Below, one piece after another: positions 13,735 through 14,457 of a stretch of 64,000 bases of DNA. The DNA comes from a virus. Within the stretch, counting starts at the first letter, position 1, and each line of letters begins with the position of its first letter. The notes beneath the pieces are model-generated. The model ran no database searches and had not been told where the DNA came from. It worked only from the letters and a program-made list of their open reading frames with translations. The position numbers and the translations under genes are program-made. Location: positions 42,820 to 106,819 of the IMG/VR virus record IMGVR_UViG_3300042451_001197. One strand, written 5' to 3'.

Positions 13735-14457
13735 ATGATTTCAGATAAAATTAAAAAAATTATATTTGATAAATTATATAAGGATTTATCTAATGTTGAG
13801 ATTATTCCCCACGAAAATAGTATTTGGTTTATAGATAGGGAAGAGAAGTATTGGTATTTTGAATTTACCAAGTCAGGTGAATTGTGGTGGAGATATTCTT
13901 TCTTTGTTGATTTTTTTCAGTTTTTTTCTATGGAATATAAGGAGTTTGTACCGATTATTAGTGAATGGGTGGAAGAGGTTTTGAATTCTAAGGTGTTTGA
14001 AACAGGGAAATTATTTTACGACTATGCACCTGAAGTGGAAGAGATATTAAATTCTAAGGTATCTACAACTGAAAGTTTATCCTTTAAGTCAGTAGGGTTG
14101 GTGGAAGAGGTATTAAATTTTAAGGTGTCTACAACTACTTCTAAATTTTCAAAAAAAAGCATTATGGTGGAAGAGGTATTAAATTCTAAGGTGTCTACAA
14201 CTACGAAAAGACATTCCCCACATATCAGACAGGTGGAAAAAGTGTTAAATTCTAAGGTGTCTACAACAATTCAGGCACAATTTCTTCTTCAGTCTCGGGT
14301 GGAAGAGATATTAAATTCTAAGGTATCGACAACTTGGTTAAATGGTTGTAATAGGGATGAAAAGGTTGGGGAAGTATTGGATTGTAAGGTGACTGAAACC
14401 AAATTAGGTCCTACAAGTAAATTTTATGAAATAAATAAGGTTTTATCTCAAACATAA
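13735..14457 (+). CDS. protein with seven 22-aa VEEVLNSKVSTT+10 variable residue repeats
   Basis: ATG at 13735 after TATCTTTG; repeats visible in translation. Confidence 0.8.
   Translation: MISDKIKKIIFDKLYKDLSNVEIIPHENSIWFIDREEKYWYFEFTKSGELWWRYSFFVDFFQFFSMEYKEFVPIISEWVEEVLNSKVFETGKLFYDYAPEVEEILNSKVSTTESLSFKSVGLVEEVLNFKVSTTTSKFSKKSIMVEEVLNSKVSTTTKRHSPHIRQVEKVLNSKVSTTIQAQFLLQSRVEEILNSKVSTTWLNGCNRDEKVGEVLDCKVTETKLGPTSKFYEINKVLSQT
13969..14399 (+). CRISPR. CRISPR-like array (7 repeats, 66-nt period) translated in frame
   Basis: (G)GTGGAAGAGRTATTAAATTCTAAGGTRTCTACAAC at 13969, 14035, 14101, 14167, 14233, 14299, 14365 with unrelated 30-31 nt spacers. Confidence 0.6.

Follow-up and report, generated by a model that had tools for sequence, protein, structure and literature searches.

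A gene in the IMG/VR virus record IMGVR_UViG_3300042451_001197 probably ends in an array of the CRISPR type (short palindromic repeats, clustered and regularly interspaced) that is translated in frame, is of the kind associated with Cas13b in Flavobacterium (type VI-B), was written by host adaptation and was afterwards kept by selection. The gene (hereafter the array gene; Table 1) lies in the stretch of 64,000 nucleotides (nt) analysed here, positions 42,820 to 106,819 of the record, which we call the window. A first-pass annotation made from the letters of this DNA had proposed that an array grown by spacer acquisition is now translated, being either exapted or dual-coding, and the proposal is supported by the kinship of the repeat, the source of one spacer, the nature of the linkers and selection on the reading frame. 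The same annotation described seven in-frame repeats at an exact 66-nt period, and these are indeed found within one open reading frame (13969-14400 in its register). Its 36+30-nt geometry was also right, but the register was not, as the true repeat starts one base earlier (13968-14003 and so on). Of 215 family repeats as first drawn, 98% are preceded by G, and the base following them is free; because of this G, we place the limits at a 36-nt repeat and a 30-nt spacer.

The repeat is akin to those of Flavobacterium Cas13b arrays. Aligned without gaps, it is identical at 24 of 36 positions to the CRISPR-2 repeat of F. columnare ATCC 49512, including all of the last 12 nt (GGTATCTACAAC), and again at 24 of 36 positions to the repeat of Flavobacterium sp. 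J27, including the last 14 nt. Shuffled sequences never reached the observed identity in 100,000 trials (p < 1e-5). The F. columnare CRISPR-2 array is itself built of 36-nt repeats and 30-nt spacers (PMC5395568, Table 4). The reference Flavobacterium arrays adjoin Cas13b (NF038190, E 1e-104) and have periods of 65-67 nt, and the phage repeats run in the same sense as the CRISPR RNA (crRNA) and as cas13b. A comparison of the phage repeat with 185,579 species genomes gave no match.

The likeness to the CRISPR repeat is also seen at synonymous sites: at 9 of the 12 wobble positions, the base of the CRISPR repeat is present in 76-99% of the phage repeats. The first valine is encoded by GTG in 93% of repeats, compared with 26% of the valine codons in the N-terminal domain (N-domain) of the protein; lysine is AAG in 92%, compared with 29% in the N-domain; and G ends the last linker codon in 98% of cases, irrespective of the residue encoded, compared with 19% of N-domain third positions. 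The synonymous bases of the repeat are retained between phages with N-domain identities of only about 50%, and their conservation begins and ends exactly at the limits of the Flavobacterium type VI-B repeat. It had been suggested that selection now acts on the protein, and this stands, but the repeat nucleotides are selected as well, since the wobble bases stay repeat-like from phage to phage. The constraint could be due to recognition by the integrase, to binding by Cas13b or to another cause. When a real Cas13b repeat is read in the phage frame, a stop falls at codon 7, and codon 7 is the most variable codon of the phage repeat.

The wobble bases, held to the CRISPR-repeat sequence within the exact repeat limits, would also suit a working phage-borne CRISPR array or a decoy, the transcript of which is bound or processed by host Cas13b (as guide or sponge) while translation only sustains the expression of the long transcript and of the genes downstream. 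The sense of the repeat, which is that of crRNA and cas13b, agrees with this, and so do the conserved host-type promoter box, the polarity that a premature stop would have in operons where array genes overlap their neighbours, and the existence of Cas-less phage arrays with host repeats (PMC7162821). We nevertheless consider it unlikely. The phage repeat lacks the inner stem of the Cas13b repeat, as the first-pass annotation had noted: the folding energy is -10.9 kcal/mol (z -2.5) for the Cas13b repeat and -4.3 kcal/mol (z -0.4) for the phage repeat, which folds no better than shuffles. Furthermore, a conserved protein domain is fused before every array, none of 122 spacers holds a stop, shared spacers have a ratio of nonsynonymous to synonymous change (pN/pS) below 1, and spacer 4, being in the sense of its source gene, could not guide against the mRNA of that gene. 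The loss of the hairpin also speaks against an RNA anti-CRISPR or solitary repeat unit as the class of this element.

Spacer 4 could be traced to a bacterial gene. A scan with its core found a 30/30 match on nine metagenome contigs of the Joint Genome Institute (35-41% guanine plus cytosine, GC), and the match spans 14202, the first base after the repeat, to 14231, the last base before the G of the next repeat. These boundaries confirm the 36+30 register, which had been inferred independently from wobble conservation. The source is an HxlR-family regulator gene (Pfam HxlR, E 7e-28), in whose sense strand the match lies, and the contigs bear ordinary bacterial genes, namely those of an SDR oxidoreductase, a seryl-tRNA synthetase, an ABC transporter and a type I restriction-modification system. 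The phage reads the piece in a codon phase other than that of the source gene, so that the resulting peptide is arbitrary. The search for protospacers that the first-pass annotation had advised thus succeeded for spacer 4 and left the six others untraced. For spacer 2, the Pelagibacter phage HTVC119P was tried as a source and rejected: the 28/30 match at 14065-14094 (E 0.01), in a head-to-tail joining protein gene, includes 6 nt of the repeat, stops 6 nt before the spacer end and was judged to be chance in AT-rich DNA. An origin of the spacers from the phages themselves was looked for in 477 kb of related phage DNA and in a 240-kb relative, with no match.

Next to this captured piece stand the features of a large protein family. 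A sequence search returned 1,207 metagenomic proteins of 151-403 residues that share an N-domain and differ in how many 22-residue units they carry, each unit consisting of 12 constant and 10 hypervariable residues; the folded N-domain precedes every array. Many phages, among the IMG/VR jumbo-phage contigs, bear three or four array genes in tandem. The IMG/VR loci gave 73 arrays, which became 38 unique arrays once duplicate loci had been removed. Before that removal, the repeats were 66 nt apart in 357 of 375 intervals, and the other intervals (63, 72, 105, 117, 123 and 132 nt) were all multiples of 3. The 122 unique 30-nt inserts hold no in-frame stop in 1,220 codons, compared with 39-98 stops in each other frame; what the first-pass annotation had said of the window array, that no stop codon interrupts it, is therefore true of the family. 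The absence of in-frame stops and the off-size periods in whole codons support the view that translation of the array is under selection. For the spacers shared between arrays pN/pS is about 0.38, compared with 0.15 for the N-domain, a rough estimate from few changes in pairs that are not independent, and it gives only a hint that the spacer peptides matter.

The linkers differ from each other in an all-or-none manner. Their pairwise distances are bimodal, with at most 3 of 10 residues different or a random-looking relation, and at the DNA level the inserts are likewise near-identical or unrelated, gaps and the reverse strand being allowed. A derivation of the spacers from one another by indels, frameshifts or inversion was rejected, as it gave no signal above shuffles. 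In the window, too, the segments between the repeats are unrelated in protein and in DNA, as had been described from the letters, and the homology among linkers that was named beforehand as the mark of an ordinary solenoid was not found. The residue composition of the linkers correlates with a random translation of their own base composition at r 0.83 and with the phage proteome at r 0.61, and the GC content of the spacers (42.6%) exceeds that of the phages (about 31%) and of the N-domains (30%). Judged by GC, residue composition and the near-identical-or-unrelated pattern, the spacers look foreign.

A tandem-repeat (solenoid-like) protein that arose by duplication and divergence, with a coincidental likeness to CRISPR, would share with the array gene a period of whole codons, a helix-like constant part and the occasional duplicated unit. 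It is very improbable, because the linkers are mutually unrelated while the repeats of the window are 83-98% identical in DNA, and because chance would have to supply both the repeat kinship (p < 1e-5) and the exact 30-nt bacterial fragment. The structure prediction likewise speaks against it: AlphaFold2 modelled residues 1-86, the N-domain, with confidence (predicted local distance difference test, pLDDT, 80-89), but the array region reached a pLDDT of only about 25, and the repeat region is predicted to be disordered. Two other classes were rejected. As the target of a diversity-generating retroelement, the array would not be expected to have spacers that are either near-identical or wholly unrelated, and no template copy was found in the 477 kb of related phage DNA or the 240-kb relative, although no search was aimed at a reverse transcriptase. 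For a precursor like those of ribosomally synthesised and post-translationally modified peptides, there are no maturation enzymes among the neighbours, and the composition of the cassettes is random-like.

Relatives have whole cassettes in common, for the most part with their order unchanged and with the 3' end as anchor: 64% of arrays share their gene-proximal unit with another protein, and 93% share their last unit. A half repeat terminates every family array, and a truncated terminal repeat is seen in the F. columnare array as well. The check for polar gain or loss of units, advised at the outset, thus gave a divided answer, in which the gradient of sharing and the truncated last repeat agree with polarity, and the swaps in order and the lack of growth from 2020 to 2024 do not. 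Paralogous arrays within one phage also have units in common. Taken with the internal position of the traced spacer, the swaps indicate that polar addition alone is insufficient, and that recombination or deletions are needed too.

Recombination could in principle do all of the work. The array gene would then encode a hypervariable repeat protein whose cassettes come from template switching or illegitimate recombination at the 36-nt repeat without any CRISPR integrase, and its likeness to Cas13b repeats would be a leftover. Swapped or duplicated cassettes, the units shared by paralogous arrays, the stability of the array over four years and the lack of Cas1 in the phage records (36% and 82% complete) are in keeping with it. 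Yet such a process has no ruler for exactly 30 nt and gives no reason why a captured piece should end at the repeat limits; spacers of intermediate similarity are missing; and a leftover would drift at its wobble sites across phages with N-domains only about half identical. We therefore hold this explanation to be quite improbable.

Under the reading that we prefer, an in-frame array written by host adaptation, the following steps are proposed. A 36-nt sequence resembling the CRISPR repeat of the host would encode the last helix of a small phage domain, and a CRISPR-adaptation integrase would insert 30-nt pieces of bacterial DNA beside this repeat-like gene end. Each insertion would duplicate the 36-nt repeat and hence add 66 nt, or 22 codons. 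Selection would retain only arrays that are in frame and free of stops, in which the captured DNA would yield an arbitrary cassette of 10 residues flanked by constant segments of 12 residues, and recombination between the repeats would delete, duplicate and shuffle units. The integrase presumably acts on phage DNA during infection and is probably the Cas1-Cas2 of the host. Host enzymes are the likely agents because neither Cas1 (PF01867) nor Cas13b (NF038190) was found in the record itself (36% complete) or in an 82%-complete relative, the Cas13b search having no positive control among the named control genomes. In F. columnare, the Cas13b array is filled in trans by the Cas1-Cas2 of a type II-C system (PMC8092290). 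Three features, namely the fixed 30-nt length, the absent stops and the rare truncated cases, follow from selection for an intact frame. As for the reason of this selection, the conserved C-terminal tails suggest one, and polarity on downstream genes is another, because array genes overlap their neighbours in operons.

Irregular arrays show that the units are made without regard to the frame. At one array locus (L033:2993-3090), the last spacer holds an in-frame stop and the half repeat still follows 66 nt downstream, past the end of the reading frame, which shows that the unit structure is independent of translation. Around the array gene, small paralogues end in mini-arrays (Table 1), in which a 35-nt repeat that retains the 5' GTTG precedes a spacer of exactly 30 unrelated nt, with an out-of-frame half repeat after it. 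Both cases show a unit-making process that ignores the reading frame. The 3' ends of the repeats had been said to match these single units; they are similar, but not identical. The paralogue half repeat (12191-12230, 12964-13000, 15545-15580) resembles a -35 element, TTGAGA, with TATTTAT 16 nt on and then the next ATG, so that the repeat remnant overlaps the promoter region of the next gene; this overlap may give the paralogue cassettes a recombination site. Several other array loci (L016, L003:2876-3433, L035, L038 and others) contain one 42-nt repeat per array, with 6 extra in-frame bases and a 72-nt period; the flanking spacers remain 30 nt and the variant is conserved across several phages. 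A conventional non-coding array of the Cas13b type, with a 36-nt hairpin repeat ending in GGTATCCACAAC and periods of 65-67 nt, was seen separately in IMGVR_UViG_3300020179_001470 (72.9 kb); this record is either a host fragment filed in error or a phage that bears a true array.

Several observations weigh against an array written by host adaptation. The repeat hairpin is lost, as described above. Logan contigs from lake metagenomes of 2020-2024 break within the array of the window; in those that cover it, the array is the same or nearly so, and no gain or loss of a unit, hence no growth, was observed. Units have been swapped and duplicated, so that the order is not strictly conserved, and the traced spacer 4 is internal, not leader-proximal. 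Only one of the seven window spacers was traced; three others are absent from IMG/VR, and a comparison of the window spacers with 802 sampled Flavobacteriales genomes gave only weak AT-rich matches. For the source gene of spacer 4, the nearest genome compared is that of a Bacteroidia member, at 79% DNA identity, the GTDB family of that genome (21 genomes) has no closer copy of the HxlR gene, and the seryl-tRNA synthetase of the source shares no more than 68% identity with its counterparts in sampled Flavobacteriales. Finally, the phage records in which cas genes were sought are incomplete (36% and 82%).

Table 1. Array gene, repeat-spacer units and other features of the window (positions are those of the 64,000-nt stretch)
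Feature	Position	Strand	Remark
Mini-array at the end of a single-unit paralogue	12126-12208	+	35-nt repeat, 30-nt unrelated spacer, out-of-frame half repeat
Third mini-array	starts 12474		more degenerate
TAnnTTTG box TATCTTTG	13723-13730	+	putative Bacteroidota-type -7 promoter element, 12 nt upstream of ATG
Array gene, 240 amino acids	13735-14457	+	N-domain, in-frame repeat-spacer array and short tail; 1,207 homologues differ in unit number
N-terminal domain	13735-13967	+	helix, four strands, two helices (AlphaFold2); last helix continues into repeat 1; groups with the paralogues of about 100 residues (BLASTP)
Repeat 1	13968-14003	+	36 nt
Spacer 1	14004-14033	+	30 nt; peptide in common with homologue P0001
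Repeat 2	14034-14069	+	last 14 nt identical to Flavobacterium sp. J27 Cas13b repeat
Spacer 2	14070-14099	+	30 nt; window-specific
Repeat 3	14100-14135	+	
Spacer 3	14136-14165	+	30 nt; A-rich
Repeat 4	14166-14201	+	consensus copy of the array
Spacer 4	14202-14231	+	peptide TKRHSPHIRQ; 30/30 copy of part of a bacterial HxlR-family gene, in a different frame
Repeat 5	14232-14267	+	
Spacer 5	14268-14297	+	peptide in common with homologue P0002
Repeat 6	14298-14333	+	
Spacer 6	14334-14363	+	peptide in common with homologues P0001-P0003; conserved trailer end
Repeat 7	14364-14399	+	most diverged; 5' end GTTGGGGAAG nearest to the Cas13b repeat start
Spacer 7	14400-14429	+	peptide conserved in homologues P0001-P0003
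Eighth repeat	14430-14457	+	degenerate, truncated half repeat (about 14430-14448, 66 nt on), then stop codon
Second mini-array, of like kind	15480-15562	+	end of the paralogue at 15234-15560
tRNA genes Arg-TCT, Glu-TTC, Ser-TGA	54334-54922	minus	gene cluster

The window is part of a 106.8-kb record that is about 36% complete and has 28% GC, and DNA near-identical to it was found across many lake-water metagenomes. Outside the window, at 5547-11087 of the record, there is a gene for a 1,846-residue protein with SprB repeats, PKD-like domains and a C-terminal sorting domain of the type IX secretion system; a full-length Hsp70, a thymidylate synthase and three tRNAs are also encoded in the record. 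Such a gene content agrees with a jumbo phage of Bacteroidota, and the host phylum is suggested by the SprB repeats and the sorting domain together with the TAnnTTTG boxes. Nearly all related phages have such a box at -12/-13 relative to their first array gene, often with a terminator-like hairpin upstream, and it presumably functions as a promoter.

The array gene sits within a tandem cluster of about a dozen paralogues of about 100 residues (10435-15947), to which BLASTP joins it, and the 12 constant residues of each unit correspond to the C-terminal helix motif of this paralogue family. Neither Pfam nor PHROGs has a family for the array gene or its paralogues. A fold search of the PDB with the N-domain gave no match at Z >= 5, that of BFVD gave only uncharacterised proteins of uncultured phages, and the ESM Atlas gave no usable match for the array gene. 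Rfam found neither CRISPR-DR nor any other family over 9000-17000, INPHARED contained no homologue of the array protein among cultured phages, and none of the runs listed as containing the window stretch was RNA. Close to the cluster, unrelated small proteins (11453-11878, 15944-16336 and 16348-16956) share the N-terminal motif M-K/N-L-Q-E/Q-x-I-x-R-I, and a cluster of proteins that start in this way recurs near the arrays of related phages.

Compared with the Flavobacterium type VI-B arrays of F. columnare, F. covae and Flavobacterium sp. J27, the phage array has the same lengths of repeat (36 nt) and spacer (30 nt), the same strand sense, a variable end beside the promoter, a truncated terminal repeat and a spacer copied from a bacterial chromosome. 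Unlike them, it lies inside an open reading frame, is always in frame and stop-free, has lost the hairpin, keeps its spacers at 30 nt (29-31 nt in the bacterial arrays), has no cas genes nearby and is partly shuffled in order. The compact Cas-less arrays that huge phages carry (Al-Shayeb et al. 2020, PMC7162821), which are presumed to use host Cas proteins, are alike in occurring in large phages with few repeats, no Cas1 or Cas2 and host-related repeats. Those arrays are, however, non-coding with the host repeat intact, whereas here the array is a translated gene tail with a recoded repeat.

Virus-borne mini-arrays, solitary repeat units and RNA anti-CRISPRs have reportedly been described by Medvedeva et al. 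in 2019, Faure et al. in 2019 and Camara-Wilpert et al. in 2023. They too are repeat-like elements on viral genomes, and the paralogues in the window have one repeat, one spacer and a half repeat; to our knowledge, the known examples retain the Cas-bound repeat structure and are not read as protein. Nivala et al. are said to have observed in 2018 that Cas1-Cas2 integrates spacers ectopically at repeat-like sites of E. coli chromosomes in the laboratory ('neo-CRISPR'). There, as in the reading preferred here, a pseudo-repeat is duplicated and a new array is begun outside the CRISPR locus, but the neo-CRISPR case does not concern a family of virus genes in which the feature is conserved, selected and translated. 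Multi-core peptide precursors such as those of cyanobactins have a conserved N-terminal part and constant segments, conserved in DNA, that flank hypervariable peptides. The phage gene shares this layout of conserved N-terminal part, constant flanks and hypervariable cassettes, but differs in having no nearby maturation enzymes, random-like cassettes with one frame-shifted copy of a regulator gene, and CRISPR-like flanks.

CRISPR arrays are regarded as non-coding memory, and repeat-spacer patterns inside open reading frames are routinely dropped as false positives. A full-text search of the literature found no description of CRISPR arrays that are translated or extend a gene, and PMC10392669 concerns other repeat systems; Cas-less phage arrays are already known (PMC7162821), but we found no description of a translated, Cas13b-kin array in a gene tail in the literature searched. 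The array described here, which is truly akin to Cas13b repeats and holds a captured spacer that can be traced, forms a conserved and translated portion of a large family of phage genes. It is conceivable, and we put it forward only tentatively, that this phage family uses CRISPR spacer integration as a writing device, whereby host DNA would be inserted 66 nt at a time and the 10-residue cassettes would be selected as protein, or as protein and Cas13b-related RNA at once; this would be a natural diversification of a protein driven by an integrase. If the host Cas1-Cas2 does write into phage genes, a virus would be subjected to CRISPR adaptation, or would exploit or decoy it, and new peptide sequence would come from DNA capture in one step. 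The phage repeat would then mark the bases that matter when the hairpin is dispensable, making repeat recognition by the integrase directly testable. The array also offers a handle on host assignment for the uncultured jumbo phages of lakes.
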